The notes under the pieces: generated by a model
Seen by the model: only the letters and a program-made list of their open reading frames with translations
What the model was told of the DNA's origin: nothing
The model's database searches: none
From: Chloroflexota bacterium
GTDB lineage: Bacteria > Chloroflexota > Anaerolineae > Anaerolineales > Anaerolineaceae
Assembly (NCBI GenBank): GCA_012514645.1
Contig: JAAYZW010000107.1
Coordinates: 4,599 to 68,598, forward strand
Length of the DNA stretch: 64,000 bases
Direction: 5' to 3'
Translations under genes and position numbers: made by a program
Shown here: one piece after another, positions 13,884 through 60,512 of the stretch
Position numbering within the stretch: the stretch's first letter is position 1
Layout: every line of letters begins with the position of its first letter

Positions 13884-13985
13884 TCATACCTCCATACGGT
13901 GAGGATATTTTAAGACACGAAAAACCTGCTGGAATCCCTAAATCCAGAGTTTTTTCGTTTGTATCGTATATTTTCGCAAACTAAA

Positions 13986-14014
13986 ATTATATAATTAATC
14001 TCTATCTTCGTCAA
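13986..14014 (-). promoter_or_regulatory. Consensus sigma70-type promoter upstream of rpoC
   Basis: The minus strand reads TTGACG (14014..14009), 17 nt, TATAAT (13991..13986). This predicts a ~95-nt leader before the rpoC start. Confidence 0.65.
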
Positions 14015-14130
14015 GTATAAATTGGGTTCGGTTTGTATATGGTCTGCGCTTTCCTCCAGGCACCCTCAGGGGCTGAAACTCCTCAGGTTGTATCCATTAA
14101 TTATCGCATCTATATCGCGCTACGTATAGT

Positions 14131-16571: not shown

Positions 16572-17270
16572 CTATCTTTGGGCGATTATCCTCATAACAT
16601 GTTCGACAACTTCATAAACGGTCATGTCATCAGAGTTTACGATAACGGCGTCATCAGCCGCACGCAGTGGCGCAATTGATCTGCCAGAATCGATCTCATC
16701 GCGATGCCGCAGGGATTCCTCAATATCCACCAGGCATACTTTCTTCCCTCTGCCAAGTTCCTCGACATAGCGGCGCTGGGCGCGCACCTCAACGCTCGCT
16801 TCCAGGTAAATTTTCAGGTCAGCATCAGGCAGCACAACCGTGCCAATATCCCTGCCGATCATGACAATGCGCCCGTTTTTGGCAATTTCGCGCTGCAGCT
16901 CGGTCATCGCGCCTCGCACTCTTGGATAAACCGACACCTCTGAAACGACCTGGTTAACCTCCGGAGAGCGAATATGCCAGGTATGGTCTGCCCCATCAAT
17001 GAGCACATCAAATTGGCGTCCGTCTTCTTCGCTGGCGTGTCGAATATCAATTTTTATTCGCTCTGACAGTGCACTGATTTTTTCTGCATCAAAGACATCA
17101 ATGCCCTCTCGCAATGCTTTACATGCGACTGCCCGATACATGATACCGGTATCCAGGCAAATGTAATCCAGCCGGTTGGCAATCAGATTACCAATGGTCG
17201 ACTTGCCAGAGGCAGCCGGACCGTCAATGGCGATGATATTGGGAGGGTTTGGAATTACCTGTTCACACAT
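16572..17270 (-). CDS. cmk: Cytidylate kinase
   Basis: IAIDGPAASGKSTIGNLIA P-loop followed by LDTGIMYRAV. Confidence 0.9.
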   Translation of the reverse strand: MCEQVIPNPPNIIAIDGPAASGKSTIGNLIANRLDYICLDTGIMYRAVACKALREGIDVFDAEKISALSERIKIDIRHASEEDGRQFDVLIDGADHTWHIRSPEVNQVVSEVSVYPRVRGAMTELQREIAKNGRIVMIGRDIGTVVLPDADLKIYLEASVEVRAQRRYVEELGRGKKVCLVDIEESLRHRDEIDSGRSIAPLRAADDAVIVNSDDMTVYEVVEHVMRIIAQR

Positions 17271-17273
17271 ATA

Positions 17274-18986
17274 TTATTGGGAAGCTCCTGTAAATAAATT
17301 CAAACGAACCCACAAGACACCTTTTTGGTCCAGTAATACTGGCTTCTTGCCGGCGAGAGCTTGCAGATAGATAACGCCTGGACCATTACGCCAGTCTACA
17401 GTCCTTTCCAAAACGACGTTAGTGCCCCTGAATTCTTCGTCTTCTTGTAATAAGCTCTCGCTGCGACTCATAACGATGCTGACATCATCATGGTTTCGTG
17501 CGATTCCGAAATCGCGGAAGTGCCACGCATAACCGTCGGGCAGATTTTGTAGAGCAAAATCACCTGCTTGTTGAAGGCTTCTTCCGCTCAATTCAAAATC
17601 GCGAATGAGCATTTCAATATCGTTATTCGGGAGGACCAGGTAATTATCAAGGTATTCGAGTGAGGCAATTTGTTGATCTGCCTTCAGGCTTCGGAAACTC
17701 TTTCCAAGGGTGATGATTGCCAGGAAAACAAGCAAAGTCACCAGAAAAACGCGGGAGGTGTCAGTCGTGGACCAGCTAAATCGCACAAGCCACCAGGCAG
17801 TAATCAGCAAAACAATTCCAGCAATAATCATCAGGAAAACATTCCAAAACTGGGGAGAGCCAACTGGTTGATCGATGAGCCGGCTGATATTCAACTTGAT
17901 AAAGATCAGAATTGTTATTACAAAAACCGCCAAAAGTGGTTTTAGCCCCCATGGTTTCAAATCTTCCAGTTCAAGTTGAGCCAACCAAAAGGCACCGCCA
18001 ATCCAGGAGATCAAGACCGGGATGAGCGTCAGCTCAAAACTTTCCCGGGATAACACCATGCACAAAATCATTGTGATTATGATAGAAGCCCCGCCAAAGT
18101 TATAAAAGCTGGCACCCCGCGATTTCCGTATCCTGATATAACCAAGAATGAAAAGCGTAAAAGGTAAGTAGCTATGCGCAATTTGTAGGTAAATCGTATG
18201 GTAAAGTGCTTTATCAAAAGAATGGGTGAAATTGTCGATAGACCCAATCACGCTGCTTGCCAACCCGCTCAACCCGGAAGGATTCAGGAAAAAACTGGTC
18301 AGCGTTAGCACGGCAAAGGCGATGAAACCAAGCAGCACTTCCAACCAATTGATCTTTTGGTCAGTGTGGGTAACCAATCGGAATTCGTCCAGCAAGTCCG
18401 GTCGCACGGTTTTAATCAGCAGCCACGTGACCACCAGCACAATCAGGATGCTCCAGAAAACCTGCCCTGAAAGGAAAGCGAGGGCGGCACAGATGCCAGC
18501 CAAAATCGGTTTGTTCTTTCTCAGGCAGGTGAAGGACCATAACACCCCGGCGATTGCAAAGATTCCCCCATTGACTGCCCTTGAGAAAAGCAGATATGTG
18601 GGGTCGAGTGCCAGGGCAATACTGAGAATCAAAGCCGTCCTGGTGCCTAATTTTTCTTTCCAGAGCGCCGGCAACAATATCAATGATGCACCAATCAAAG
18701 CTGGAAAAAGCCGAGCAAGGAAGTTATTGGCACCCAATAAGAAAAACATCACACCGGTTAAGCCGGTGTAAGCCGGTACAGCGCTGGTCGTAGTGCTCAT
18801 TCCGCGGCTTATCTGCAGCGCTTGGTTGATCAGTTCCAGTTCGTTTTGAGCGTAAACCATACCTTCCAGAAAACCCAGACGCAAAAACAACCCCACCAGG
18901 AAAGCAAGTGAAAACCATACTGAAGCGTTCTTAAACCAGGGTTTGGTGTTTGTTTCTACTAAGGGTTCTGTTTGTGCAGTCATCAT
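17274..18986 (-). CDS. Multi-pass membrane protein, GT-C-like (putative polyprenyl-phosphate-dependent glycosyltransferase)
   Basis: 570 aa with about 12 or more hydrophobic segments. The pattern LLGANNFLARLFPALIGASLILLPALWKEKLG...DPTYLLFSR resembles the ArnT/PMT_2 core. The start overlaps the upstream stop (ATGA). Confidence 0.45.
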   Translation of the reverse strand: MMTAQTEPLVETNTKPWFKNASVWFSLAFLVGLFLRLGFLEGMVYAQNELELINQALQISRGMSTTTSAVPAYTGLTGVMFFLLGANNFLARLFPALIGASLILLPALWKEKLGTRTALILSIALALDPTYLLFSRAVNGGIFAIAGVLWSFTCLRKNKPILAGICAALAFLSGQVFWSILIVLVVTWLLIKTVRPDLLDEFRLVTHTDQKINWLEVLLGFIAFAVLTLTSFFLNPSGLSGLASSVIGSIDNFTHSFDKALYHTIYLQIAHSYLPFTLFILGYIRIRKSRGASFYNFGGASIIITMILCMVLSRESFELTLIPVLISWIGGAFWLAQLELEDLKPWGLKPLLAVFVITILIFIKLNISRLIDQPVGSPQFWNVFLMIIAGIVLLITAWWLVRFSWSTTDTSRVFLVTLLVFLAIITLGKSFRSLKADQQIASLEYLDNYLVLPNNDIEMLIRDFELSGRSLQQAGDFALQNLPDGYAWHFRDFGIARNHDDVSIVMSRSESLLQEDEEFRGTNVVLERTVDWRNGPGVIYLQALAGKKPVLLDQKGVLWVRLNLFTGASQ

Positions 18987-21622
18987 CTTGGATCTTTCAC
19001 TTCGTAGATTTCCACATTGGTTGAATTTAACAATTTATACATGTGATCTTCGAACTTTGTCTCGTCAAGCTGATAAGTTTGCCGCTCGAGCTCGCTGACC
19101 ACAATATAACGAATATTATACAGGTCAATGATCGCCTGCGCCTGGTTCCAGTCCGAGGTGCTGTAGAGTATTCGCAGATCCGTCTGCCGGTTGCCAATTT
19201 CGTCATAACCTCCGCGCCATTGAGCTTCGTGCCCAACCCAGCCCAACACAGTGGGCATGCCTGAAAAGGTCGAAACAATATTGTAGGTCGTATAGCTGCC
19301 TCCGGTGTCGGCGACTGCCTCAGCCATCACGCCTGTTTCAGCCTCGGCAAGCCAGGCTGCGGCTCGCATTTCGTCTGCGTTATACGTGTAAAAATCTTGT
19401 TTACCATCCAAACTATAGCCATCACGCGGTTGAAAACTTTCAGTTTTATTCCATATTTCGATAATTGGGAAAACCAATCCGGCCGACAGCGAAGCCAGGC
19501 TGAGAATTGCCAGTGCGAGTTTGGCGTTTTTTCGTACGATCGCGGTTCCCAGCCAAGCTAAAAACAACACTGGTATCGCCAGGACCAGAAAATCAAGCCA
19601 ATTGCTGCCAAATTCAGGTTGGAGTGTTTCGGTTTGCTGAACAATCGAAAAGGAGAATACTATCAATCCGATCAGGATGATGATGGTCGCGAATGGGCGG
19701 ATTTTACCTGGGTCAGCGTCAATCAGGAATTTCGCGATGAAGTAAGCGCCGGCGAGCGACCACAAAATCCAGGCTTGAAAATAAAACTTGAAGATTGTAT
19801 TCATCCGCGTGCCAAATTGGTCACGTAAGTAAACAAATTCCGGTACGATCACGAGCAGTGCGCCCAACAACACCAGCATAAGCACAAAAGCCTTGGTCTC
19901 CAACTTAAATCCAGTGATTAGCTCAGGGCTCTCGTCGATCGGCTGAGCGTTTTCTATCCGTACTTTTCTGATAAAGTAGTCAGAAGCCAGCAAAACCATA
20001 ACGAACATGGTGATAAAGGTTCCCGGGGATTTTAAGCGCTCAAGCATGGAGCGGAGCAGCAGATCAGTGTTATCAAGCGCACCTTGAAGATTGTTCAGTA
20101 ATCCGCTCAGATTTCCGATCCTGCCGGCTATCCAGCCCAGCCCCCACCCTGCCAAAAACAACAGCGCGACCAACGCGGCAGTTAACAACCACGAATACAG
20201 CGACGGCAGCCGTCGGGATTTTATCTGTTGATAAATAAGCCATGCCATTATTGGCACAAGTAATGGTCCAAACATGATCCAAAAATAGCTTCCGCGCGTA
20301 AAGAACGCCAGGCTTGGCAGCAAACCACCAGCCTGCGATGAGAAACTGAGATAGAACGGCAGATAAGCGAGGATGCTCAATATCCCGCCAATTAGGCTAT
20401 ACGAAATAACCTGGAAAACTCGCTTCTTGTTCCAGCCTTCCATGCTGGACTGTCTCCAAACCAAAGCAGCCACGATCAAAAGCAAATAAAAAGGAAAGTC
20501 CCAGGTATTGAGAAATGCAATCCCACCCAGGGTGACCACCGCCAACAAGGCGCTTTTCCAGTCAATCGCGATGTTCCACCGAAAGAAGCGCATGCTCCCT
20601 TCCCAGCCTCCTCTTAAGGCGTTCAACGCCAGGGAGATTGCCAGCAAAACAAATGGCATCCCCAGCAGGTGTGGGTGTATATCTGCCAATAAATAAGTGA
20701 AAAAAGGAAATTCATCGATAATTTCAATCGCAGAGCCGTTCAAACGAAAATCCTGAACCACCCGGCTGGCTTGCCACCATGACCAGCCTCCCCGGTTTGG
20801 GAACCACGAAACCCGGATGGGTTCGCTTGTCAACGATGGAATCTGCAGGTTTTGCCAGGTCTCAGACGGCAGCAACCCCCGCGCATGCAAAACGTCCAGC
20901 AGACCAAACCAGTTCGACACAATCAGGATTAGCAGTGGTGCCAGCAATGCCAGGCTATATACCCGACCGCCGACTGGTTCTTGCGTGTCTTGATTTGTTT
21001 TTTCCTTTGCCAGCAAGTCCCAGGTCAACCCATAAGCGCCCAACGCCGTCAAGCCAAACCACGATGCAGATACCAGGTTATAGCCAACCGAGGATGCCAC
21101 ACCGCTCACCCTGATAAGCAAAGCCGAAATCAGATAGCCAAAGTAATAATAGGAAATCGAATAGCCAGAGAGCCAGGGGTCGTTTGGCGGCATGGTCGGC
21201 GATTTAAGGATCGCATTGATAAACGCCATTTCCATGAACTTTTCAGTATGAATAATATCGGGATTCGCAGCCCGGACTATTGCCCAGAAGGCGAAAGCGA
21301 TCACAAAGACCAATTCTGTCACGATGATCAGTTTGCGGTTGCTTTCAAACCACTGCCGCAACTGCGAGAAGCCGATCTTCCAGGCAACAAACAAGTTAAA
21401 AGCCAATAAGATTAGCAGAATCGACAGCGCGCCAGAAAGATCGTTGCTCAGCAGCCCCAGCGTGGTCAGCCACCAGTAAACAAATCCCCACAAGAGCAGC
21501 CCAACCACCTTGGTAAGGTAAACGCCCCTGGAACGCAATTTCCGGAAAAGCAGCCAGGTGATCGGCAGATGGATCAGTCCCAAGACCTCAAGCAATAAAA
21601 ACCATTTTAAAAAGTCGATCAT
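18983..21622 (-). CDS. DUF2298 / 'Chlor_Arch_YYY' domain membrane protein
   Basis: HTEKFMEMAFINAILKSPTMPPNDPWLSGYSISYYYFGY carries the YYYxG hallmark. The protein is highly hydrophobic throughout. I prefer the ATG at 21622 (MIDFLKW), 1 nt after the upstream TAA, which gives 879 aa. Confidence 0.7.
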   Translation of the reverse strand: MIDFLKWFLLLEVLGLIHLPITWLLFRKLRSRGVYLTKVVGLLLWGFVYWWLTTLGLLSNDLSGALSILLILLAFNLFVAWKIGFSQLRQWFESNRKLIIVTELVFVIAFAFWAIVRAANPDIIHTEKFMEMAFINAILKSPTMPPNDPWLSGYSISYYYFGYLISALLIRVSGVASSVGYNLVSASWFGLTALGAYGLTWDLLAKEKTNQDTQEPVGGRVYSLALLAPLLILIVSNWFGLLDVLHARGLLPSETWQNLQIPSLTSEPIRVSWFPNRGGWSWWQASRVVQDFRLNGSAIEIIDEFPFFTYLLADIHPHLLGMPFVLLAISLALNALRGGWEGSMRFFRWNIAIDWKSALLAVVTLGGIAFLNTWDFPFYLLLIVAALVWRQSSMEGWNKKRVFQVISYSLIGGILSILAYLPFYLSFSSQAGGLLPSLAFFTRGSYFWIMFGPLLVPIMAWLIYQQIKSRRLPSLYSWLLTAALVALLFLAGWGLGWIAGRIGNLSGLLNNLQGALDNTDLLLRSMLERLKSPGTFITMFVMVLLASDYFIRKVRIENAQPIDESPELITGFKLETKAFVLMLVLLGALLVIVPEFVYLRDQFGTRMNTIFKFYFQAWILWSLAGAYFIAKFLIDADPGKIRPFATIIILIGLIVFSFSIVQQTETLQPEFGSNWLDFLVLAIPVLFLAWLGTAIVRKNAKLALAILSLASLSAGLVFPIIEIWNKTESFQPRDGYSLDGKQDFYTYNADEMRAAAWLAEAETGVMAEAVADTGGSYTTYNIVSTFSGMPTVLGWVGHEAQWRGGYDEIGNRQTDLRILYSTSDWNQAQAIIDLYNIRYIVVSELERQTYQLDETKFEDHMYKLLNSTNVEIYEVKDPR

Positions 21623-21623
21623 A

Positions 21624-24600
21624 TTATCTGACCTTGTATATGTTGGTCTCATCCTGGCTGTAGACCAGGTCCCACAGCTGACCGTCATAAGTTTCAAACT
21701 TCGCCAACGCTTCAGGCGGATAAAAAGCCATTTCTTGCTGACCCACAATTACATAACCGACCCGGTATTTCTGCAGGTACTCCTCAATAAACTCAGGTTC
21801 CATGCTCATGTAAAACGCGTTGACTTCATCAACCCGTTCCTGGACGGCGTTGTTGCGTAAAATCGCCCGCTGTTGACGCTGGTGGTAATTCCACCCCACC
21901 ACCGCTGGCAGACCGGTGTAGACAGTGTATCGGTTGCCCCAATAATACTCGTATGCCTGCGCTTCGAGGATTACCGGCGAGCCTTCCACATTCTCCTGCA
22001 TCCACTGGATTGCACGATAATCCTGCCCCAGATCCATGGTCACGCCGTTGACGAAATACTCGGAGGTCTCCATGTATTTCATCCCATCCAACGTATGCGC
22101 TGCTGCCGGGTCCATGCGGTCGGTGATTTTGTCTTTGGTTGCCAAAGCCGGGAAAAGCAGCGCTGAAAAAAGTAACACAACAAAAAAGACCTGAAACACA
22201 ATTTGCCAGCGCGTACGCCACTTGGGAAGATCACGCCACAAAATAACCAGCACCAGTCCCAGCGGCAAGGTCAACAACATCCAGGCTTGGTGATAGAGCT
22301 TAAAAACCACATTCATGCGCCCAATATCACCGACCAGGTAGACCAATTCGACCACCAGCGTAAGCACCAGCCCGGTGCCGATCATAAAATAAGCCAGCCT
22401 TCGGGCATCGTCATCGCTAATCACCATCAGGAACAGAGCCAGAACCCCCAAGGGTAATGCCACCAGGGCTATGGTCACCTTGAGTAGCAGCAAGATCAAA
22501 AAGGCTACAACGATCAATCCTGCCAAGGCGATGAGCCATTTCCGGTGTTTTTCATAAACCTTCAGCTGAGACAAGCGGGTGGATGCCATCCAGCGGTAGG
22601 TCTCCCAAAGCAGCCAACTGGTAATCAGGAACAAAATCAGACCCCAATGCAGGAAGTAAGCTGCGAGCGGTGTTCTCGGTCCATTCCAGAATCCAACCGA
22701 GCCATAACCGGAGAAAAAATTGCTATTAAACTGGTGATAGAAAACACGACTAAGCAGCAGCACCGCCACCACCCCAGCAAGTGGATAAATCCACCGACGT
22801 GTCCATTCAGGCAAAAAGCGCCAGCGCGCTCCAGGTAAATAGCGCCAACCAATATAGATTATGACGACCATTGCCAATGCGGTGAAGGTCAGGTAATCCC
22901 AGGTGTTGGTCGGTTGCAAAGCACCCAAAACGACCGCCCCAATCACAAGGATTGGAAGAAAGCCATCCAAAATTCGGAGTGTCAGTTTTCCGTCTTTTTT
23001 CCTTAACATAACCAGTGAAAGACACCAGCTGACCGCCGCCATGACGATAGGCATGGCGATCAGGTGGGCATGAAAATCGGCATAGAGGAAGGTAAAGAAT
23101 GGGAATTCCGTGATTGGTTCTCCAGGGATCATCCGGCTGGGGTTCCAATACCAGTTTCCTGAAGCGATTGGCAGGCGTTCGCCCTGGGCAGTCATGGCAA
23201 TGCCCCTGACCCACCAAACCAGTTTTTGGCTCAGGGTGGCACCTTCTGTGCTGACTCCTGCAGCCCCGAGCGCTGCTAAACCGTCTGCAATAACCTTGAT
23301 TTCACCTAAATTGCCGACAAAAGCAAGCAGCAAAGCACTGCCAACACCTGCCCAAAAAGCCGTCCCAAACAATTTTTCGTCTTCGTTTTTACCAACCGCT
23401 TTTGCCAGGTTCCAGCCGATGCTGAAGGCACCAATCACCAACATGGCATACCAGAGCGAGATAAGGATGTTATACGAAACTGCCGGCACCACACCGAGCA
23501 GTTTTATCGGCAAAGCGACCAGAACCTGCCCGTAATAGTAATAATTAATATATCCGCCGGCATACCAAGGGTCATATGCTGGAAAAACGCTGCTCTTGAT
23601 CACAGCATTGAGAAAGCTGAAATCCATCGGCTTTTCGCCGCCACGCCAGGGGTGCCATAAGTCCGGGTTTTGGTAGCGAATCCATAGGAAAAAGGCAAAC
23701 GCTACCAAAAATACTGCTTCTTCGACAAGGAACTGTTTCCATAATCGTTTGACATCTTCGCTCAAGCCTTTTCTGGTAAGCCAGGTGATCAACACCGATA
23801 AAATCAAAATGCCTGCCAAAACGATCCAAAGCAGGGTTCTGGTTACTGGCACTTTAATTGAGCCAAGGTTGAAGGTAACCAGCGCAAACAGCAGTAGTCC
23901 GATGATGCGGGCAAAGGCATATCCCTTATCTTTCAAGCCGGGCAGTGCCAGCCGAACGATCGGGAATACAGCAAGCCCCAACAGCCAAAATAGCAGGTAA
24001 AAAGCCAGCACCGCCAGCCAGGTTTGCCGGTTCAATAACGAGTCGCGGTCAAACAGCTCTGACCACGTGCCGCCTTCCTGCTGTATCTGCAATTCTTCTT
24101 CAGTAAGCATCAGGTTGTTTTCCGCTGCCCCTGCCACATACGAGTCGGCTTGCCTGGGAGTCAGGAAAACCGCGCTGTCTATGTCGACTGAATTCAACAA
24201 AGCCCAAACTGCTTCACTATCGAACGACTCGTTCTTGCGGAAGATCAGCACTTTCGGGTGATCGTAGACCGAAAAAGCCTCTTCAGCATATTGATCGTTA
24301 AATTCGATGCTGCCAAGCGTTGGGTATGAGGTAAACGTTTTGACCAGATCAAAACCGAGCGTTCCAGATTGTCCGGATTCGGCTTCGTAGTAGCAAACCA
24401 GGGTGTCCTGTTCTTCCGGGCAACCCAGCAACTGGCGGTAGAAAAAGGTGCTCAGCGGATAGCGCTCTGGCACGCGGGGGATGGTGCCAAACTGTCTGTT
24501 CGAGCTCATGATAATAGTGTCAGCCTGGGTCAAGACTGAGTAAAACCGCTGCAGCTTGCTGGCATCATCGGGCCAATACATTTCGAAATTCAGGTCACCT

Positions 24601-26861: not shown

Positions 26862-26864
26862 AAA

Positions 26865-28919
26865 CTATTGGCTCGCTAAAAAGATCAAAAAGTCTTTGCC
26901 GGGATGTACGCTTTGATAGAGCGAGGTTACTCCGGCTGGATAGAGAGATTGTAACTGACCAAGGCTCTCACTGTCGCTGATGTGCAAAAGAAAGATTTTC
27001 GCGGTCTGAAGTTCGGCTGTGCTCCCCAGATCCTGCGGAAGAATCGAAAAATTGACATGCGGTTCACCCATCGTGATTGCCACCGCCCGGGCATCAACCC
27101 AGTGTGGATATCCGACTATGTAAGCCTGGCTTGTGCCGCCCTGTCCGGTGTCGTAGTTTTGGATCACACTGGACATCTCGCTGCTGTTCCAGGCGGAAGC
27201 CTGGTATTCGCGCGGGTAAGTTGTGTTAATCAGGCTGAAATTTCGGAGGATAATCAGGATCGCAAAAATCCCAATGAATAGTGCCTGTTTGACCCATCGA
27301 TTTTCCGAAACTAAAAGTCGGTCTGCCGCAAAAGCTAAGCCCCTTCCAGCGATCAACATGACTGGAACCACAGAAATGATCGCACGGCTTAGGGAAGGGT
27401 TTTCCATGGGTTGGGCGAGCGATAATACCGAGGGCAGCAAACCAACGAAAAACAAAAGAACCAGTGAAATGCTTTGGTCCGGTTTTGTGCGCATATCGTG
27501 AAAAAGGATAACGCTCAGACCAAATAAAAAGAAGGCGCCAGTGACCCAATCGACCGCCGGTCGGTTTGCAATACCTTCCACCCAACTGCTGTGATTGTTC
27601 CAGTTAACCATTCCGACAGCCGCGATCAAATTACGAAAGAAGGTACTGGCAGCACTGTCAGCATTGGCAACCTGATTGACCAGCGGCGAAATCCAGCTCT
27701 CCGCGTTGGAGGCGATGATAAAAACCAATGGCAGCATTGCCACCAGCCCAACCAATAGACTTATGGCTACGCGCAACATCAAGGCTGTTCCGGGGTTATC
27801 GCGCTTGTTGCGGACCGAATAAGCAATCGTTATCAACAGGTTTGCCAACAACAGAACAAAGAAAATTTTATTGGTCAGCAAGCCCAAACCTGTCAATACC
27901 GAAGCAATCAACAAGGCATTAAGGTCGTTTTCCTGCAGTGATTTCACCAGGTAATAAAAAGCCGGCAGCAAAATCGGCAGCACCATTCCAAACCCCAATA
28001 TAGCCCGCTGCTGTATGATTGACCAGAAAGCAACGCCCAGCAATAAGGCAGTAATATAACCGGTCATTTCATCAAACAATCGCCTACCGAGTTTGAACAT
28101 ATACAAGACCGCCGTCAATCCACCCAGACCATATGCCAGTTTTAATCCAGCAAAGCTCATTGGGCTGCTGGTGAATTGGTTAATTAGAGCCGCCCAGTAA
28201 TAACCAAGTGGCTCACTGACCACATTTCGTGGGAACCAAAGCGCGCTCCCGCCCTGCAGGATCCCATCGACTGTGTAATATGTCTCCACCTGCGCGCTGA
28301 TCATCTCTGGCGGCACTTGCTCCAGCCGACCTAATTGGAAGAGGAGTACGACAATAATTAATGCCAGGTATGCCGCCGTTCTTCCACGGTTGGCAACCAA
28401 ATTTTGCAAGATCACCTTGAAGTCCGGCTTTGATGATTTTTTGGGCTGAAGAAAGGCAGCAACGATTGTGGCAATACTGGATATCCACAACAAACCGGCA
28501 ATGAAACCGACCTGCTCCTGCTGGTAGAGCTGGCTGGCGCCTAACGCCAAAACGAAAGATACGAGCATCCAGCCCAGGCGCACTTTAACTACTCCGACGG
28601 TCTCAGCGCCCAGGGACGATTCTGTCGTCTCGAGAGATGGTGCCCTCTCACGCCAGAAGGCAAAACCAGCCAGCAAGAGACCAACCGCAAGCAGCAAGAC
28701 CCCAACCCCACCAAGCGCTTCACGCACAAATTCGATCAAAAACTGACCGACAAGCAAACTGGCAAGCGCTGACAGCAGCAATTTGTTTGGCCTAGGCTTT
28801 TTTGACACTGCGACAGCCGGGCTAACCGGTTCGTTTTCCGGGGCAGGTTTGCTAAAATAGCCGCGGAGAGCTTCGAGTACTGTTGGGTCGTGCTCCGGAA
28901 CGGGGAAGTTTTTACTCAT
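26865..28919 (-). CDS. Multi-pass membrane protein, GT-C-like (ArnT/PMT_2-like)
   Basis: 684 aa. EPLGYYWAALINQF...FAGLKLAYGLGGLTAVLYMFKLGRRLF follows the pattern of family-39-like glycosyltransferase cores. It has many TM segments and a soluble C-terminal ~130 aa. Confidence 0.5.
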   Translation of the reverse strand: MSKNFPVPEHDPTVLEALRGYFSKPAPENEPVSPAVAVSKKPRPNKLLLSALASLLVGQFLIEFVREALGGVGVLLLAVGLLLAGFAFWRERAPSLETTESSLGAETVGVVKVRLGWMLVSFVLALGASQLYQQEQVGFIAGLLWISSIATIVAAFLQPKKSSKPDFKVILQNLVANRGRTAAYLALIIVVLLFQLGRLEQVPPEMISAQVETYYTVDGILQGGSALWFPRNVVSEPLGYYWAALINQFTSSPMSFAGLKLAYGLGGLTAVLYMFKLGRRLFDEMTGYITALLLGVAFWSIIQQRAILGFGMVLPILLPAFYYLVKSLQENDLNALLIASVLTGLGLLTNKIFFVLLLANLLITIAYSVRNKRDNPGTALMLRVAISLLVGLVAMLPLVFIIASNAESWISPLVNQVANADSAASTFFRNLIAAVGMVNWNNHSSWVEGIANRPAVDWVTGAFFLFGLSVILFHDMRTKPDQSISLVLLFFVGLLPSVLSLAQPMENPSLSRAIISVVPVMLIAGRGLAFAADRLLVSENRWVKQALFIGIFAILIILRNFSLINTTYPREYQASAWNSSEMSSVIQNYDTGQGGTSQAYIVGYPHWVDARAVAITMGEPHVNFSILPQDLGSTAELQTAKIFLLHISDSESLGQLQSLYPAGVTSLYQSVHPGKDFLIFLASQ

Positions 28920-28936
28920 GGAGTAATTTTAGCCGT

Positions 28937-29752
28937 TTATGCCGCCAAAGTCCTCTCGGCGTACAGGTAGCCGAGGTCGGCATGGACCAGGTTATGGTAA
29001 TGCTTGACCGTGTAACCGAGATCCTCAAACTGGCTGGTTAACCGTTCGTGATTACACACGTCATCACAATCATGGTACTCCATGATGATTCGTTGAATTT
29101 TTAAGAAAAGCTGTGGATCCTGGTCCATTAGAATCTGAAACTCGGCACCTTCACAATCGAGCTTCATCAGGTCGATATTGGTGCCAACTTTCTCCTCGAT
29201 CACTTGCTTTAGCGTGATCACCGGGATGGTAGTTTCTTTTGCCGCCTGTAATTCTGCTGAGTTAGCCTCTCCGCTGACTGCCTGCAAGGGTTCGTTGTTC
29301 AGGAAATGCAGCGGAATTTCGCCTGCCTCTTTCCAAACGCCGAGATTATAAGTCTGAACTTTGTCCAGGTTATTGGCACGCAAGTTTTGGCGCAAAATAT
29401 TGATCGACCCTGGATTTGGTTCAAATGCGTGTACGATACCATTTTCCAGGTGCAAAGCCGCTTCGATGGTGAATTCGCCAATCGCCGCGCCAATGTCGAC
29501 AACCACCCAATCGGGCTGCACCTGGGTGCCCAAGCGGGTGTAATATCGGTCGATCAGAGCTTCCTTGACCGACCACGCTTCCATTTTGCTGCCGATGCCG
29601 ATTTTGAGATCGTTTCGTCGTAAATGGAGCCATTTAACCCCCAGAAACGGTTTTCCTAAAAAGATTTCAAAAAGGTCCTTCCAGTTTTTTACGCCATAAA
29701 GCAATTCAAATATCGACCATAAATAATACGCATATTTTCGAATAAATCTCAC
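28937..29752 (-). CDS. FkbM-family methyltransferase
   Basis: VVDIGAAIGEFTIEAA, HAFEPNP and KLDCEGAEFQIL match the FkbM domain signature. Confidence 0.75.
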   Translation of the reverse strand: MRFIRKYAYYLWSIFELLYGVKNWKDLFEIFLGKPFLGVKWLHLRRNDLKIGIGSKMEAWSVKEALIDRYYTRLGTQVQPDWVVVDIGAAIGEFTIEAALHLENGIVHAFEPNPGSINILRQNLRANNLDKVQTYNLGVWKEAGEIPLHFLNNEPLQAVSGEANSAELQAAKETTIPVITLKQVIEEKVGTNIDLMKLDCEGAEFQILMDQDPQLFLKIQRIIMEYHDCDDVCNHERLTSQFEDLGYTVKHYHNLVHADLGYLYAERTLAA

Positions 29753-30555
29753 ACACGCCTCCTGGCGATATAAAAAGTACAGGTTCCCTCGTTATCGCGC
29801 GAATTCGCAACCAGCCGCGCGATTGAATCGAAATGAATAAATGGGTTCTTGCGGTTTTTGAAAAGCACCCATTTCCCGAACAATTTTTTCCAAAGCAGGT
29901 TGGGCAATCCAGCAGCGTGACCGCGCTCCAGTTTGTGCAGTGCTTCTACCGGGAAGTAATGCCAGTATTCCACCTGGTCGAATCCTGCCTGTTCAAGGCG
30001 CTTGAGCCATACCTCTGGGGGATCGAGATTCTTGTGCCGGGAGATCATATTAAAAAATCGCGAATAGAGCAGTGCCAGACGTTTCAAGCATATCCTCGCG
30101 AAAACCTCCATGCCCCACAAATCGGTTACGAAACGGCGATTAGGAACAGCAAAAAAGAATTTTCCGCCCGGTTTCAACACACGCGCGGCTTCGTTTAAAA
30201 CCGGTTGGACATCCTTAATGTGTTCGAGTACCGAGTTGCTGATCGCGCTGCCGCAGCTTGCTGTTTCAACCGGTACGCTTGCTCCCTCTGCCTGGACCAG
30301 CAGCGGGTAGACATTCCAGGTTTTCGCCTCCAAAAGTGGCTGCCACCAGGGGTCAACGCCAATCACTGCCTGACCCTCAAACAGTGCCCAGGCAAAATGC
30401 CCATCGCCGGCACCCAGATCATAAATCGGTTCTTCCAAAACCTGGGTCTCATAGAAACTCTGTTCCACCGCCCGCAGCATTCCACGGAAATAAGGCAAAT
30501 GGAAGAGCTGTTGTTCGCAAATGCGTTCAATGTCTTGTTTGGTTAGTTCAGTCAT
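29749..30555 (-). CDS. Class I SAM-dependent methyltransferase
   Basis: IYDLGAGDGHF (motif I), ISNSVLEHI and LKPGGKFFFAVPN. It overlaps the downstream gene by 4 nt. Confidence 0.75.
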   Translation of the reverse strand: MTELTKQDIERICEQQLFHLPYFRGMLRAVEQSFYETQVLEEPIYDLGAGDGHFAWALFEGQAVIGVDPWWQPLLEAKTWNVYPLLVQAEGASVPVETASCGSAISNSVLEHIKDVQPVLNEAARVLKPGGKFFFAVPNRRFVTDLWGMEVFARICLKRLALLYSRFFNMISRHKNLDPPEVWLKRLEQAGFDQVEYWHYFPVEALHKLERGHAAGLPNLLWKKLFGKWVLFKNRKNPFIHFDSIARLVANSRDNEGTCTFYIARRRV

Positions 30556-31702
30556 TATTCACCAGTAGAAAAAATGATTCTTCATAATGTCTGGCAACGG
30601 CGTTTTGAGAAAATTTTTCCAGAAACTCAGTCGGAACAAACCGAGCTTTCTCGCCCTGATTGAAGATCTCAAGAATCGCCTTCGAGATTGCTCCCGGATT
30701 TCTCAATGGCACAATTTTGCCAAGTCCGGTATTCTTAACCGGCTGCCTGACCCCCGGCAAATCAGAAGCAACCACCGGTGTGCCCTGGGTCATCGCTTCA
30801 ATTTGCACGATTCCATACGATTCGGTGGCATTCAAACTTGAAAACACCAGCACATCAATGGCAGCAAAAAAGGTCTCAAAATCTTCGTCGCTCAGGAAAC
30901 CAAGCGAGTGCCATTTCTCCCCAAAGGGTTGAATGAATTTCTCGACCTGATCCCGGTAAGCCCGTTCGCCAACAACACCATCCCAGGCACCGGCGTGCAC
31001 CACCCTGGCTTCGGGACACACCCCCAGAACAGTCGGCAGTGCTATTGCCAGGTATTCATAGCCTTTTTCAGAAGCCACTCTGCCTGCCAGCCCGATCACT
31101 TTATCGGTTTTTTGGATGCCATATTTTTTCCTGAAGGCTTCCACCCTGTCAGCAGACACGCTTTTGACTTTCACAGGAGTGGGCACCGCGATTACTTTCT
31201 CAAGATATTTACGCAAAATCGGTGAGTGTTCAGCGTAATCCAGCGAATTTTGCACAACAAGGTTGGCATCTTTGACCACTTGTTGACCAATAGTTGAGGT
31301 AACCATTCCTGCAAGGCGGTTTAGTAGTGAGCCGGTCATCACTAGGTCACAGTGGTAGGTCACCAACACGGGTTTGCCAAATCCCTGCGCGATTTTGCTC
31401 AGAAGCAAGCTCTCAAACTGTGGCAGGTGCAAATTGACCACGTCAGCCCAGGCGATCCACTGCCGGGCAATTTTATGCAACCGTGGCATCAGCACTCCCT
31501 TGGAGAGCCTGGTCGTCACAGGCACCCGCACGATCCTAAATCCGTCCTTAGTTTCCAGGCTTGGCAGCAATTTTTCGTATTGTGACGTCAGAACGACTAC
31601 TTCGTGCCCTCGCTCAGCCAACCCCTCTGCCAGCCGCAAGGCGTAGACCGAAAGACCGGAGCTATAGGGGTAAAAGTAGGTCGATGAGATTAGAACTCTC
31701 AT
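30548..31702 (-). CDS. Glycosyltransferase family 4 (GT-B, group 1)
   Basis: MRVLISSTYFYPYSSGLSVYALRLAEGLAERGHEVVVLTS N-terminus and ESYGIVQIEAMTQGTPVVASDLPG C-terminal motif. Confidence 0.8.
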   Translation of the reverse strand: MRVLISSTYFYPYSSGLSVYALRLAEGLAERGHEVVVLTSQYEKLLPSLETKDGFRIVRVPVTTRLSKGVLMPRLHKIARQWIAWADVVNLHLPQFESLLLSKIAQGFGKPVLVTYHCDLVMTGSLLNRLAGMVTSTIGQQVVKDANLVVQNSLDYAEHSPILRKYLEKVIAVPTPVKVKSVSADRVEAFRKKYGIQKTDKVIGLAGRVASEKGYEYLAIALPTVLGVCPEARVVHAGAWDGVVGERAYRDQVEKFIQPFGEKWHSLGFLSDEDFETFFAAIDVLVFSSLNATESYGIVQIEAMTQGTPVVASDLPGVRQPVKNTGLGKIVPLRNPGAISKAILEIFNQGEKARFVPTEFLEKFSQNAVARHYEESFFLLVNND

Positions 31703-32730
31703 GGGAGCTTCTCCTTCTTTTGACGGAATTGACTGGCTTTGCCAAGCAAGGCTTCCAGGCTCTGCCCAGATATGACCAACGCGATCACTCCCAGGATGGC
31801 TGGGATGATGATTTGAACGCTGTGAACCACCAGCGCCATGGCAAGTGCGGGAGCTTTGTCAATACCCACCAACGCGTAGGATCCGACCGCGCCGGCTTCG
31901 TAAACACCCAGCCCACCAGGAGCGGCAGGCAGCGCGTTCACAAAAGCACTGGCAGGAATCACAAGCATTGGCCACCACCATTGCGATTGTGGCAGGATGG
32001 TTTGCTGTAAAACCAGGTATTCGAGCATCGAAAACGACCAACTCACAGCTAACAGTACAAAAACCAGCACGAAGCGCTTCGGTTTGACAAAAAACTGAAA
32101 CCCACTCAATAGTTGATCGAAAGCTGGAAGCGCTCTGTCATGCAAAAATCCCGATCGTTTGAAACGAACCTGCAGCCACTCGACAACTTTGGATCGATTT
32201 TGTGACGCGTAGAAAATGAAAGCGAGTGAAAGCAATAAAACCAGCATACCGACCCAGGCGATTCGCCTGAGTGCATCGCTTTGGATAAATAGTAGTAACG
32301 ACACAATTAAGAAAGAAAACCCAACCAACAGGTCCAGCAACCGCTCCGCTACGATTGAAGCCATTGCTTCCATGTAACCAACATTGCCTTCACTTCTTTC
32401 GGTCAGAAAAGCGCCGCGACCAAACTCACCTAACCTAAGAGGGATGATTGTGTTGAGCAAATAGCCCAGGTTCATCCCCCAGAAAGTGTCCAGGAAACTG
32501 ATTTTCCCGCCCAGAATCATCCAGCAAACTAAGCTTCTGAGAAACAGCCCCGCAGAAAAAAATATGATGATTAAGCCGATCGACGCTATTGACAGCTGTT
32601 TGAAAGCGTCAATGAGCGATTGGAAATCCAGCTGCCGTAAAACCAGCCAGATTGCCAGTACGCTGATTAGCAAGGGTAATCCTATTTTGAGGATCCGGTT
32701 TAGCCCGGGTTTCGCCTCTGGTTGGGACAT
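31699..32730 (-). CDS. Flippase-like membrane protein (LPG_synthase_TM / UPF0104 family)
   Basis: 343 aa with about 8 TM segments. LLNTIIPLRLGEFGRGAFL is typical of UPF0104. The start overlaps the lepA stop (TAATG). Confidence 0.6.
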   Translation of the reverse strand: MSQPEAKPGLNRILKIGLPLLISVLAIWLVLRQLDFQSLIDAFKQLSIASIGLIIIFFSAGLFLRSLVCWMILGGKISFLDTFWGMNLGYLLNTIIPLRLGEFGRGAFLTERSEGNVGYMEAMASIVAERLLDLLVGFSFLIVSLLLFIQSDALRRIAWVGMLVLLLSLAFIFYASQNRSKVVEWLQVRFKRSGFLHDRALPAFDQLLSGFQFFVKPKRFVLVFVLLAVSWSFSMLEYLVLQQTILPQSQWWWPMLVIPASAFVNALPAAPGGLGVYEAGAVGSYALVGIDKAPALAMALVVHSVQIIIPAILGVIALVISGQSLEALLGKASQFRQKKEKLP

Positions 32731-34523
32731 TAATCCTCCAGGCGCAAGATAGCCATAAAAGCTTCCTGGGGAATCTGAACGCTGCCAACCATCTTCATGC
32801 GTTTCTTTCCCTTTTTTTGCTTTTCAAGCAGCTTTTTCTTGCGAGTAATGTCACCACCATAACACTTTGCCAACACATCTTTTCGCAAAGCTTTTACATT
32901 GGCGCGCGAAATCACCCTACCCTGCGCATAAGCCTGGATCGGGATCACGAACAATTGGCTGGGAATAATTCCTTTAAGCTTGCTTACCAGGGCTTGTCCC
33001 TTGTGAAAGGCATCTTGTTTATGAACAATCGCGGTGAGGGCATCGACCGGTTCTTCATTGAGCAATATCTGCAATTTCACCAACTCACCAGCGCGGTATT
33101 CAATGAATTTGTAATCCATCGAGGCATATCCGCGTGTGCTTGACTTAAGCAAGTCAAAGAAATCGACAATAATCTCTGAAAGCGGAATTTCGAAATTTAG
33201 CTGAACCCGGTTGGCAGCCGGGTAATCCTGGTCGACATAGATTCCCCGCCGACGTTTGACCAGGTCCATCACTACCCCATAATAATCCGTGGGTGTGAAG
33301 ATCTCCAGTTGCATCCAGGGTTCATAGATATCTACAATCTCACCTTCATCCGGCAAATCTGCCGGTGAATCGATAATGATCGTTCTTCCATCTTTGAGAT
33401 CGACTTTGTATTCCACCGAAGGCGCGGTAAAAACGACATCAAGATCATATTCGCGCTCCAGGCGTTCCTGGATAATTTCCATATGGAACAGCCCTAAAAA
33501 GCCGCAGCGGAAACCAAAATTTAGCGCTTCGGAAGACTCAGGCTCGTAAGTGAGTGAGGCATCGTTAAGTTGCAGTTTCTCGAGCGCTTCCTTGAGATCA
33601 CTGTAATCTTCACCGTCCACAGGGTAGACACCGGCAAAGACCATCGGTTTCGCTTTTTGGTAGCCAGGTAGTGGCTTCTCGGCTGGTTTGGTGGCGTGGG
33701 TAACGGTATCGCCAACCCGGCAATCGTGCACGGTTTTCAAACCAGTAGCGATGTAGCCTACATCTCCGGCTTCCAATGAAGCAACCCGCTTCATTCCCGG
33801 AGAAAAGACCCCGATTTCGATCGGTTCGAACTTTGAACCGGTTGCCATCATCAGCACTTTTTCGTTACCGCTCAGCTTGCCATCAAAAACACGCACATAA
33901 GCGATTACTCCCTTGTAGGAATCGTAGTGAGAATCAAACACCAGTGCGCGGAGCGGTCTTTCTTTATCTGTTTCCGGCGGGGGAACCCGTTCGGCAATCG
34001 CTTGCAATACTGATTCGACGTTTTGACCAGTCTTGGCGCTGATTGCGATAATTTCGCTTTTGTCAACCCCCAGCAGCTGCACCAGGTCGTTGGTTACTTC
34101 TTCAACCATCGCTGATTGCAGGTCAACCTTGTTAAGCACAGGGATAATCACCAGGTTGGCTTCCAGTGCCAGAAAAAGATTCGCGAGGGTTTGTGCCTCA
34201 ATGCCCTGGGTAGCATCAATCACCAGAACCGCCCCTTCACAAGCGTAGAGCGCGCGGCTGACTTCATAGCTGAAATCGACATGCCCAGGAGTGTCGATCA
34301 GATTAAATTCATATTCCTTACCCGAAGGGTCGTTGAAAACCATGCGCACAGCAGAGGCTTTGATCGTAACGCCTTTTTCTCTTTCGAGGTCCATCGAGTC
34401 GAGCACCTGCTCAGTCATCTCACGGTCAGAGATTGTGCCGGTTAGCTGCAACATGCGGTCAGCCAGGGTCGACTTTCCGTGATCCACGTGGGCGATAATG
34501 CAAAAATTTCGTATGTTTTCCAT
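32730..34523 (-). CDS. lepA: Translation elongation factor 4 (LepA)
   Basis: [32 protein letters not shown] and the LepA C-terminal block. I prefer the ATG at 34523 (MENIRNF), which gives 597 aa, over the 34625 extension. Confidence 0.92.
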
Positions 34524-34715: not shown

Positions 34716-35588
34716 ATGCTTAAAGTGTGGATCGAAACCCTGCGTCCACGACAGTGGACCAAAAACGCGGTTATTTTTGCCGCTTTGATCTTTGATGGTC
34801 AGTTTCTGCAACCTATGCCTTTTCTACGTGTCGCAGCCGCCGCGCTCTTGTTTTGCCTGGTATCAGGCGTTACCTATACCATAAACGATCTGCTCGACAT
34901 TGAAGCCGACAAACTGCACCCAACCAAGCGTAACCGTCCAATCGCCTCGGGCAGGCTTGGCAAAAATCAGGCGATCATCTGGGTGGTCTTACTATCAACC
35001 ATCTCCCTGGTTGGTGGTTACCTGCTTTCCCCCTACCTGGCGCTTATCTACCTCGCTTACAGCATTTTGATGCTGCTTTATTCCAAATGGCTGAAGAAAA
35101 TCATAATTCTCGATGTCATGATCATCGCCTCCGGTTTTTTACTTCGTGTCATGGCAGGGCTGACGGTGATCAACGTTGCTTATTTTTCGCCGTGGCTATT
35201 CGTGCTAACAACCTTACTGGCGATGTACCTGGCGTTCGGCAAACGCCTGGCAGAATTGAAGCTGTTGGAAGAAGACGCTGGCACCCACCGCAAATCGCTG
35301 GAAGAATACACAATCCCGCTCTTAAACCAATATATACTGATTGTGCTGGGTGCCATCCTGATCACCTACACACTCTACACCTTTTCAGCCCGCCCAGAAC
35401 AACCCAGTTATGCGATGATGTTGACCATCCCTTTTGTGGTTTATGGCATTTTCCGCTACCTTTACCTGATTCAAAGTGGTTTGATGACTTCCTCACCGGA
35501 AGAAGTACTGATAAAAGACCGCCCTTTGCAGGTGGCAATTTTGCTGTGGGGGTTGGCAGTCGGAATTATCATCTATATCATGTTTTGA
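34716..35588 (+). CDS. UbiA-family prenyltransferase, decaprenyl-phosphate phosphoribosyltransferase (DPPR synthase)-like
   Basis: 290 aa with about 8-9 TM segments. NDLLDIEADKLHPTKRNRPIASG matches my recollection of the Rv3806c-type motif (NDxxDxxxD...HPTKRxRPxAxG) rather than the UbiA/MenA-type RTxxRP motif. Confidence 0.65.
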   Translation: MLKVWIETLRPRQWTKNAVIFAALIFDGQFLQPMPFLRVAAAALLFCLVSGVTYTINDLLDIEADKLHPTKRNRPIASGRLGKNQAIIWVVLLSTISLVGGYLLSPYLALIYLAYSILMLLYSKWLKKIIILDVMIIASGFLLRVMAGLTVINVAYFSPWLFVLTTLLAMYLAFGKRLAELKLLEEDAGTHRKSLEEYTIPLLNQYILIVLGAILITYTLYTFSARPEQPSYAMMLTIPFVVYGIFRYLYLIQSGLMTSSPEEVLIKDRPLQVAILLWGLAVGIIIYIMF

Positions 35589-36546: not shown

Positions 36547-36549
36547 TCT

Positions 36550-40318: not shown

Positions 40319-40377
40319 GACGTGCACCTCTCAGCAAAAACATCTTGCCTTGAGAGGTGCACGTTTTGTACCAACGA

Positions 40378-56413: not shown

Positions 56414-56462
56414 CTCAAAAATTATACCCGCAATTAATCACTGATTGAGTATAATAACCCGC

Positions 56463-57440: not shown

Positions 57441-57446
57441 GTTTCC

Positions 57447-57468
57447 GGGACGGTATGGTAGCCGTCCC
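57447..57468. terminator. Hairpin between the convergent GT2 gene and the 57488 gene
   Basis: GGGACGG/CCGTCCC forms a 7-bp stem with an 8-nt loop. There is no clear U-tract on either strand. Confidence 0.35.
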
Positions 57469-57487
57469 TTGCGGATATCCCCTGTTT

Positions 57488-59446: not shown

Positions 59447-59447
59447 G

Positions 59448-60419: not shown

Positions 60420-60512
60420 AAACTTGAATTTACACCCGTTCCTCTCAATTGTGATCCTTCATGCCTATATCATAGCTGAAAACCAGGGATTCGCACGAAG
60501 GAGTTGGAGAGC

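Follow-up and report, generated by a model that had tools for sequence, protein, structure and literature searches.

What do the ten closely spaced genes that run from lepA to cmk in an Anaerolineaceae genome make, and what part do the proteins of the DUF2298 or 'Chlor_Arch_YYY' family (YYY below) play in it? The genes lie on the minus strand at 16572-34523 of a 64,000-nucleotide (64-kb) stretch of DNA from a Chloroflexota bacterium (assembly GCA_012514645.1, contig JAAYZW010000107.1, positions 4,599 to 68,598), which we call the window and to which all coordinates refer unless a locus in another genome is named. YYY is a large family, with ~8,500 clusters at 50% identity in a library of 1.8 billion proteins, and the literature searched gives passing mentions of it and no function. 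A preliminary description of the window had proposed that the whole array is an envelope glycosylation system built around YYY proteins. Our analysis makes it reasonably probable that the locus encodes an extracytoplasmic glycosylation unit with multiple GT-C modules, dependent on polyprenyl-phosphate-linked sugars.

GT-C-type modules in four polytopic proteins

The four polytopic proteins of the array (684, 1745, 879 and 570 aa) contain five GT-C-type modules, of which three are PMT_2-like and two belong to YYY/DUF2298. The first YYY module, together with a C-terminal globular domain, forms residues 948-1745 of the 1745-aa protein, here called the giant (21624-24020), and scores 508.7 bits against TIGR03662, the Chlor_Arch_YYY model (cut-off 300.25), and 374 bits against PF10060. 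The second is the stand-alone 879-aa protein (18983-21622), with 447.2 bits against TIGR03662 and 364 bits against PF10060. The ATG at 21622 is preferred as the start of its gene to the TTG of the 921-aa open reading frame (ORF) given by the mechanical ORF list, because more than 100 orthologue clusters are ~880 aa long. The preliminary description had seen the YYYxG motif in both proteins, and both copies could be located: SYYYFG at 21137-21163 in the 879-aa gene (motif at 21143-21151) and NYYYYG at 23529-23555 in the giant (YYYY at 23535-23543), each on the minus strand. The motif, at the predicted start of a membrane helix, is invariant in both Chloroflexota paralogue groups, in Halarchaeum and in Pseudobutyrivibrio, and profile-profile comparison by hhalign relates the two YYY module families to each other at 100%.

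The AlphaFold2 model of the 879-aa protein has a predicted local distance difference test score (pLDDT) of 86.3 and a predicted template-modelling score (pTM) of 0.92. Among the first 14 Foldseek matches to this model, 8 have a probability of 1.0, and all of these are GT-C enzymes, including DPY19 (7zlg, E 1.5e-4), ArnT (5f15) and AftA (8if8), or the C-terminal domain of AglB; the remainder have probabilities of 0.30 or less, and the next matches after the GT-C entries are unrelated membrane proteins. The AglB match (3vu0, probability 1.0, TM-score 0.51) is to the C-terminal domain of the 879-aa protein. When both Chloroflexota paralogue groups are compared with one Halarchaeum plasmid gene and one Pseudobutyrivibrio plasmid gene, the invariant residues are E127, D/E131, D148, W150, YYY158-160, R287 and E304, followed by D314-x-H316-x-H318, R606, N608 and K612, and by D739, E768, W795, H798 and R803 in the C-terminal domain. 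The candidate catalytic residues E127, D/E131 and D148 come after a helix that is preceded by a K/R-rich loop. Such a set of conserved positions would be typical of an enzyme with a substrate-binding domain, and with the predicted fold it makes the reading of YYY as a GT-C enzyme well supported but not proven, and the family a candidate for a new GT-C family.

The three PMT_2-like modules are the 684-aa protein (26865-28919), residues 1-446 of the giant (25524-26861) and the 570-aa protein (17274-18986). Orthologue alignments built from 80 related genomes link the three families to one another, with hhalign probabilities of 96% between the N-terminal half of the giant and the 684-aa family, 93% between the 684-aa and 570-aa families, and 73% for the remaining pair. 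Together with direct HMM matches, these values bear out the earlier statement that the other membrane proteins have PMT_2-like cores. The 684-aa protein matches PF13231 (PMT_2) at 30.7 bits (cut-off 26.1), and in its family the loop behind the first helix has a conserved P-x-E motif. The window copy of the N-terminal half of the giant has no Pfam match at E<=0.01; many of its orthologues carry PF13231 or PF02366. An AlphaFold2 model of residues 1-950 (pLDDT 84.6, pTM 0.81) is matched by Foldseek at probability 1.0 to AglB (3wak, E 2.4e-8), STT3, EmbB, ArnT, Pmt4 (TM-score 0.57), ALG12 and PglB, and the first-loop motif D39...H43-x-H45-P-D47-E48-R49, encoded at 26712-26747 on the minus strand, is invariant. 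Residues 447-947 (24021-25523) form a large soluble region, presumed extracytoplasmic, in which the model shows a beta-rich part (~466-730) and a conserved alpha/beta domain (~767-945). Many invariant residues fall within 729-944, and the region is a candidate for binding the acceptor.

The 570-aa protein has no Pfam match. Its match to TIGR03663, a model that NCBI now names 'flippase activity-associated protein Agl23', is confined to residues 76-244 and reaches 42.7 bits (E 3.8e-11), below the cut-off of 126.25 bits, so that the protein is best described as a divergent relative of this family and of PMT_2, and not as a member. R36 is invariant in the 570-aa family and position 49 is acidic in 32/32 orthologues; in the window protein the Asp of the family's 'D-x-E' position is lost (Q47-N48-E49). 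Acidic residues thus follow the first core helix in each GT-C module, as the preliminary description had expected of GT-C enzymes, and GT-C folds are predicted strongly for the N-terminal half of the giant and in a modest, specific way for YYY.

Organisation and conservation of the array

The ten consecutive ORFs begin with lepA, encoding elongation factor 4 (32730-34523; TIGR01393, 944.8 bits). A stand-alone MprF-type flippase-like membrane protein of 343 aa follows (31699-32730; PF03706, TIGR00374), and then a cytoplasmic, PimA-like GT4 glycosyltransferase with a GT-B fold (384 aa, 30548-31702; PF00534, PF13439, PF13579). Two S-adenosylmethionine (SAM)-dependent methyltransferases, a class I enzyme of 268 aa (29749-30555; PF08241 or Methyltransf_11, 5e-15) and an FkbM-family enzyme of 271 aa with a GTG start (28937-29752; TIGR01444, 105 bits; PF05050), precede the four polytopic proteins, and the run ends with the cytidylate kinase gene cmk (16572-17270; TIGR00017, 220.8 bits). 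Searches with Pfam and NCBIfam HMMs recovered every family that had been assigned to these genes from the letters of the sequence. Measured directly, the nine junctions are -1 nt between lepA and the flippase-like gene (TAATG), -4 nt before the GT4 gene (ATGA), -8 nt between the GT4 and class I methyltransferase genes, -4 nt before the FkbM gene (GTGA), then +17 nt before the 684-aa gene, +3 nt before the giant, +1 nt before the 879-aa gene, -4 nt before the 570-aa gene and +3 nt before cmk. The range of -8 to +17 nt is identical to that first reported, as are the TAATG, ATGA and 8-nt overlaps, and the genes may be co-transcribed. Promoter and terminator scans gave counts near the shuffle expectation, with every site inside an ORF. 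GC content is flat over the array region, and there is therefore no sign that the array is a recently acquired island. The co-directional run extends past cmk to a histidine kinase gene, 47 nt after it, and then to rpoC. As lepA and cmk are housekeeping genes that lie within the array and outside the glycosylation pathway, the proposal of a single system is supported for the eight genes from the flippase-like gene to the 570-aa gene and falls for the two at the ends.

Retrieval of species-level genomes with the YYY protein as query yielded 80, all from Anaerolineales and with YYY identities of 35-75%; the carriers in this order include the cultured Ornatilinea apprima, Bellilinea caldifistulae and Brevefilum fermentans. 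Their common order is GT4, methyltransferase, 684-aa gene, giant, YYY, 570-aa gene, cmk, kinase and rpoC, and because the same order recurs in 80 genomes the array is more than a product of chance. In the 44 Anaerolineales loci with complete coverage from GT4 to cmk, neither the giant nor the 570-aa gene is ever missing (44/44 each); the 684-aa gene occurs in 40/44 and the class I methyltransferase gene in 37/44. The longer flanks of four distant relatives (L081-L084) have lepA and the flippase-like gene upstream and an FkbM methyltransferase gene as well, and the pairing of the flippase-like gene with GT4 is conserved in relatives. Where both methyltransferases are missing, a GalE/GMD-type epimerase or dehydratase of the short-chain dehydrogenase/reductase (SDR) type is encoded between the flippase-like gene and GT4 (L066:905-1945, L014:2429-3454, L078:3441-4286). 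Since an SDR replaces the methyltransferases in these relatives, the array has a variable 'sugar-tailoring slot'. In one of them, LepA domains and LPG_synthase_TM lie on one ORF of 939 aa (L078:426-3245) that covers both lepA and the flippase-like gene, either through a genuine fusion or through a frameshift or misassembly at a TAATG-type overlap.

Beyond Anaerolineales, no relatives turned up in a metagenome scan that used only the Halarchaeum protein as query; a scan with an alignment seeded with an archaeal YYY sequence gave 80 diverse loci, 58/80 of them without the Anaerolineales-type context. A PMT_2-like module is fused to YYY or directly upstream of it in 30/39 non-Anaerolineales metagenomic loci, and, of those with enough downstream sequence, 25/34 have an Agl23-like gene immediately after the final YYY gene. 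Nine of ten sampled genes downstream of YYY exceed the TIGR03663 cut-off, at 163-277 bits, and the 570-aa gene of the window occupies the slot that these true TIGR03663 genes take in other lineages. In the Chloroflexia (Roseiflexus castenholzii, Chloroflexus and Oscillochloris), PMT_2, two DUF2298 domains and C-terminal TPR repeats are joined in one protein of 2,500-2,800 aa, and behind its gene lies another DUF2298 gene, which stands alone (L085, R. castenholzii CP000804, and L086, Chloroflexus, both with fusions of 2,500-2,700 aa). The PMT_2-YYY fusions in the giant and in these three genera provide Rosetta-stone support for a joint function. On one contig of haloarchaeal character with 66.5% GC (L164:8965-16710), two TIGR03663-like genes follow a YYY gene whose product is 41% identical to the Halarchaeum protein, and the second of them (1124 aa) has a C-terminal region that matches ScyF/NHL-repeat models.

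The genes around these loci are heterogeneous. Among 95 flanking ORFs outside Anaerolineales only class I methyltransferases recur (6/95), beside YYY genes of unrelated lineages, and there is no enrichment of GT2, flippase or UbiA genes; GT4, the flippase and decaprenyl-phosphate phosphoribosyltransferase (DPPRS) were accordingly dropped as parts of a universal core. In some low-GC bacterial contigs YYY and PMT_2-type genes, two of each, are grouped with one GT4 and one class I methyltransferase gene, in another order and orientation. On the Pseudobutyrivibrio xylanivorans plasmid pNP95 (L088, 70272-72527), the DUF2298 gene lies within a surface-polysaccharide cluster with wecB, two GT2, DegT, GtrC-like, O-antigen ligase-like and CapD-like genes, and the Halarchaeum plasmid gene has an uninformative context of a histidine kinase and purine genes. 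From gene content, the universal core consists of a PMT_2-like protein, one to three copies of YYY and an Agl23-family protein, and the cytoplasmic genes for GT4, methyltransferases and flippase are a lineage-specific addition of Anaerolineales. Conservation of the gene order, which the preliminary description had taken as a test of its proposal, therefore holds across Anaerolineales for the whole array, and beyond this order for the PMT_2-like/YYY/Agl23-like core; it does not hold there for the GT4/methyltransferase/flippase part, which recurs independently in one low-GC lineage.

A candidate pathway and its alternatives

Two cytoplasmic-side components suggest what the eight genes might build. 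The flippase-like protein scores 133.5 bits against PF03706 (LPG_synthase_TM, cut-off 33.4) and 69 bits against TIGR00374 (cut-off 43.2), and stands alone, without an aminoacyl-phosphatidylglycerol synthase domain. MprF consists of a head-group synthase domain and a flippase domain, which the pair of GT4 and flippase-like proteins would mirror. The best solved relatives of GT4 are mycobacterial PimA (4n9w/2gej, E 4e-18 over residues 2-351) and also PimB' (3oka), and its NCBIfam matches include several lipid-glycosylating GT4 families; it reaches no NCBIfam equivalog, and MshA, the MSMEG_0565 family and glycolipid synthases score similarly. That a PimA-like GT4 is encoded next to a flippase-like protein of MprF type suggests that the species flipped is a glycosylated membrane lipid.

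A candidate source of donor lies just outside the array. Divergent from lepA, a plus-strand gene (34716-35588) encodes a predicted, DPPRS-like polyprenyl-phosphate phosphoribosyltransferase of the UbiA family that exceeds the cut-off of the equivalog NF008977, decaprenyl-phosphate phosphoribosyltransferase (257.9 bits, cut-off 234), aligns over its full length with M. tuberculosis DPPRS (8j8j, E 3.3e-43) and keeps the NDxxDxEADxxHPTKRxRPIAxG motif. It is followed on the same strand by genes for mevalonate kinase and isopentenyl-phosphate kinase (35596-37341; TIGR00549, 249.8 bits; NF040647, 144.3 bits), which would supply isoprenoid precursors, and L084 has all three genes as well. Three of the four distant relatives (L081, L083 and L084) retain the divergent position, L082 has lost it, and in L028, where lepA and the flippase-like gene are missing, the DPPRS-like gene stands directly beside GT4; in all, a DPPRS homologue is adjacent in 5/6 checkable genomes. 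The enzyme is thus a candidate maker of a polyprenyl-phosphate-pentofuranose donor. A polyprenyl-phosphoribose synthase with a flippase and a GT-C enzyme is an established extracytoplasmic pentofuranose route, in which a GalE-like SDR can set the identity of the sugar (Kelly et al. 2024, PMC11127046).

On these data, the run of eight genes that begins with 31699-32730 and ends with 17274-18986 probably encodes one glycoconjugate assembly line. At the cytoplasmic face, the PimA-like GT4 would glycosylate a membrane lipid, and the two SAM methyltransferases would modify the sugar of the cytoplasmic intermediate or a donor. The MprF-type flippase-like protein would then move the product to the outer leaflet, where the five GT-C-type modules would extend or transfer the glycan from polyprenyl-phosphate-linked sugars. 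The 570-aa Agl23-like protein might supply donor by flipping, as Haloarcula Agl23 does, or serve as a further transferase, and polyprenyl-phosphate-ribofuranose or an epimer of it, made by the divergent DPPRS-like enzyme, is a candidate donor. The product would be a conserved housekeeping envelope glycan, for which a lipid anchor is the favoured option. For the acceptor as a lipid and the product as a lipoglycan we have a tentative preference; the use of pentofuranose donors is possible and held with somewhat more doubt.

Several results weigh against this reading of the locus. Searches of all Protein Data Bank (PDB) sequences with YYY, by phmmer with a single sequence and with a profile, gave no match, hhalign relates YYY to the three PMT_2-like families at less than 3%, and a permissive Pfam scan of 49 YYY members gave no recurrent weak match to a GT-C family. 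With no sequence link to known enzymes, the GT-C assignment of YYY is therefore one of fold, and global TM-scores of the 879-aa model with GT-C structures are low (0.32-0.45), which makes the match modest. PimA is a common top PDB match for GT4 enzymes, and the label 'PimA-like' is correspondingly weak as a sign of a lipid acceptor. Neither in the array nor adjoining it is there a priming enzyme, a GT2 polyprenyl-phosphate-sugar synthase, a phosphoribose phosphatase or DprE1/E2. As the array itself has no priming phosphoglycosyltransferase and no GT2, of the lipid-carrier pathway first suggested for it the extracytoplasmic GT-C logic survives, and the classical undecaprenyl-diphosphate scheme of assembly, flipping and transfer has no specific support. 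Near the YYY genes of Roseiflexus and Chloroflexus there is no GT4, flippase-like, methyltransferase, lepA or cmk gene, and GT4, flippase-like and DPPRS genes do not adjoin YYY in these genera or in most other lineages. Finally, lepA, cmk, the histidine kinase gene and rpoC are as syntenic as the putative pathway genes, and adjacency alone is no proof of common function.

The alternative that survives best is protein O-glycosylation, in which the PMT_2-like and YYY modules would transfer polyprenyl-phosphate sugars to proteins that are secreted or displayed at the surface (of the S-layer, sheath or pili) in the manner of PMT or TMTC enzymes, and GT4, the methyltransferases and the flippase-like protein would only prepare the donor. 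Three modules do have PMT_2/PMT homology, and Pmt4 and oligosaccharyltransferase catalytic subunits are among the best fold matches of the N-terminal half of the giant; however, PMT_2 also holds lipid- and glycan-directed enzymes such as ArnT. The C-terminal domain of YYY resembles the C-terminal globular domain of AglB, although this likeness is at the level of fold, with the TM-score given above. The fusions in Chloroflexia end in TPR repeats, which TMTC O-mannosyltransferases also carry. Archaea, Chloroflexota and Clostridia, the hosts of YYY, share surface glycoproteins and not wall polymers, and Agl23 has been linked to the donors of archaeal N- and O-glycans (PMC11182771). Against this, no conserved gene for a candidate acceptor protein is present in the neighbourhoods examined, and a lipid acceptor agrees better with the pairing of a PimA-like GT4 and a flippase domain of phospholipid type. 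We consider protein acceptors rather unlikely.

It is also conceivable, and very doubtful, that YYY, the Agl23-like proteins or both are translocases, scramblases or scaffolds for lipid-linked sugars and that only the PMT_2-like modules are catalytic. Agl23, a GT-C-related protein that has been linked to the use of hexose-phosphate-dolichol, translocates lipid-linked oligosaccharide in proteoliposomes (PMC11182771), YYY lacks a sequence link to any proven transferase, and the loss of the Asp of 'D-x-E' in the 570-aa window protein would agree with such a role. The high density of invariant positions (acidic, His, Arg and Lys) and the conserved soluble C-terminal domain of YYY across domains of life argue otherwise and are typical of enzymes with a substrate-binding domain, and a scramblase would not need the two or three YYY modules that each locus has. 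That there is no single system at all, but inherited synteny of unrelated housekeeping and envelope genes with tight spacing due to genome compaction, would explain the equal synteny of the housekeeping genes and the Roseiflexus and Chloroflexus contexts, and is nevertheless highly improbable given the domain fusions, the retention of the PMT_2-like/YYY/Agl23-like triad in many lineages with otherwise unrelated flanks, the independent re-assembly of YYY, PMT_2, methyltransferase and GT4 in another order, and the persistence of the UbiA gene beside GT4 in L028.

The extracytoplasmic GT-C unit that we favour can be extended into a broader proposal, which as a whole we think unlikely. YYY/DUF2298 would found a new GT-C family, and its triad with PMT_2-like and Agl23 proteins would be ancient in Archaea, Chloroflexota and some Clostridia. 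In Chloroflexota, with GT4, the flippase and DPPRS-made pentofuranose, the triad would build a lipoglycan or arabinan-like polymer comparable to the mycobacterial one, which would explain the outer layers of the envelope, and the haloarchaeal versions could be glycosyltransferases that use hexose-phosphate-dolichol handled by Agl23.

Neighbouring genes and relation to known systems

Elsewhere in the window, a second possible glycosylation module lies at 56445-62432. It comprises a GT2 with C-terminal membrane helices (56445-57440, plus strand), which could supply a polyprenyl-phosphate-hexose, and three divergent minus-strand genes. Two of these encode paralogues that are 49% identical, a polytopic protein of 652 aa and a protein of 639 aa, and the third encodes a second MprF-type flippase-like protein (59448-60419). 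The 652-aa and 639-aa proteins have no Pfam or NCBIfam match, and the idea that the cluster at 57488-62432 holds extra GT-C paralogues was rejected on finding no profile similarity to the five GT-C modules. Downstream of the array, cmk, the histidine kinase (with a polytopic N-terminal region), rpoC and gyrA follow in this order (9384-16524), with no rpoB before rpoC, and the order cmk, kinase, rpoC recurs over Anaerolineales loci. Topoisomerase I (40378-42765, minus strand) has an N-terminal DUF5679 domain, and two minus-strand ORFs, of 395 aa (39140-40327) and 238 aa (53237-53953), belong to no Pfam family. Scans of all 64 kb of the window detected neither tRNA genes nor, at gathering thresholds, any Rfam family.

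The locus gives YYY a testable role as a GT-C-type enzyme with two constant partners, a PMT_2-like protein and a protein of the Agl23 family, the latter being the only partner with experimental data. In Chloroflexota it has a core, housekeeping character: it adjoins lepA, cmk and rpoC and is missing from none of the Anaerolineales genomes sampled, and its product is therefore probably a major component of the envelope. The layered envelope of Chloroflexota can look monoderm or diderm-like, lacks the lipopolysaccharide (LPS) and β-barrel assembly machinery (BAM) pathways, and is open as to its make-up (PMC13319060). Both this question and a large orphan family become concretely testable, in a way that would not shock a glycobiologist, and the three cultured Anaerolineales species named above, R. 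castenholzii, Chloroflexus and Oscillochloris offer carriers for study. If the activity of YYY is confirmed, a new CAZy glycosyltransferase family would probably be justified.

Among known systems, the mycobacterial pathway to phosphatidylinositol mannosides, lipomannan and the arabinan of lipoarabinomannan (PIM/LM/LAM; PimA/PimB', DPPRS Rv3806c, PimE, MptA/B, EmbA-C and AftA-D) resembles the locus in its PimA-like GT4, in the DPPRS homologue with its catalytic motif, in having several large GT-C proteins with big soluble domains, with AftA and EmbB/C among the fold matches, and in its conserved, housekeeping character. In contrast to that pathway, the window shows no DprE1/E2 epimerase, Rv3807c-type phosphatase or Ppm1-type GT2, its flippase candidate is an MprF-type protein, and the phylum is different. 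YYY/DUF2298 modules have not, to our knowledge, been described as part of the mycobacterial pathway, and the literature searched contains nothing that joins Chloroflexota, decaprenyl phosphoribosyltransferase and arabinan.

Three-component systems, such as GtrA/B/C, ArnC/E/F/T and polyprenyl-phosphoribose synthase (PPPRS) with a MATE protein and GT136 (PMC11127046), likewise make a polyprenyl-phosphate sugar inside the cell, flip it and transfer it outside by a GT-C enzyme. A PPPRS-type synthase is encoded nearby here too, and the GalE-like SDR in the arrays of some relatives parallels the undecaprenyl-phosphate-ribofuranose epimerase ORF13 (PMC11127046). Of the parts of the system described by Kelly et al. 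2024, only the PPPRS-like gene was found, GT136 being known here by description; there is no HAD/PAP2 phosphatase and no MATE gene among the scanned window ORFs of at least 150 aa. The locus also differs from these systems in having five GT-C modules where they have one, in lacking a GT2 and a phosphoribose phosphatase domain, and in a flippase-like protein of another family (PF03706). Whereas three-component systems decorate a pre-made polymer, the locus is conserved and housekeeping.

The archaeal Agl23 and Agl/ALG pathways (Agl22/Agl23, AglB/STT3) share with the locus the TIGR03663 genes directly after YYY in many lineages, with the 570-aa gene in the same slot, the GT-C folds and a YYY C-terminal domain that resembles that of AglB. 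The cytoplasmic GT4, flippase and outside GT-C enzymes also mirror ALG2/11, Rft1 and ALG3/9/12. Unlike these pathways, the locus has no WWDYG motif, no sequence match to STT3/AglB and no dolichol-diphosphate priming enzyme, and the 570-aa protein falls below the TIGR03663 cut-off (42.7 versus 126 bits). Likeness to PMT/TMTC and ArnT (GT39/GT83/GT105) lies in the three PMT_2-type modules, in a first-loop motif of the D-E type, HPDER, and in the TPR repeats of the Chloroflexia fusions, as in TMTC; in contrast to these enzymes, the YYY modules have no detectable sequence relation to PMT_2 (<3%), and MIR domains are missing. The locus is thus a full member of none of the mycobacterial, three-component or archaeal Agl systems. 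The GT-C fold class and the general logic of the pathway are known already; the literature searched has no description of what YYY proteins do, of the constant triad that they form with PMT_2-like and Agl23-family proteins, or of fusions that join several of these modules.

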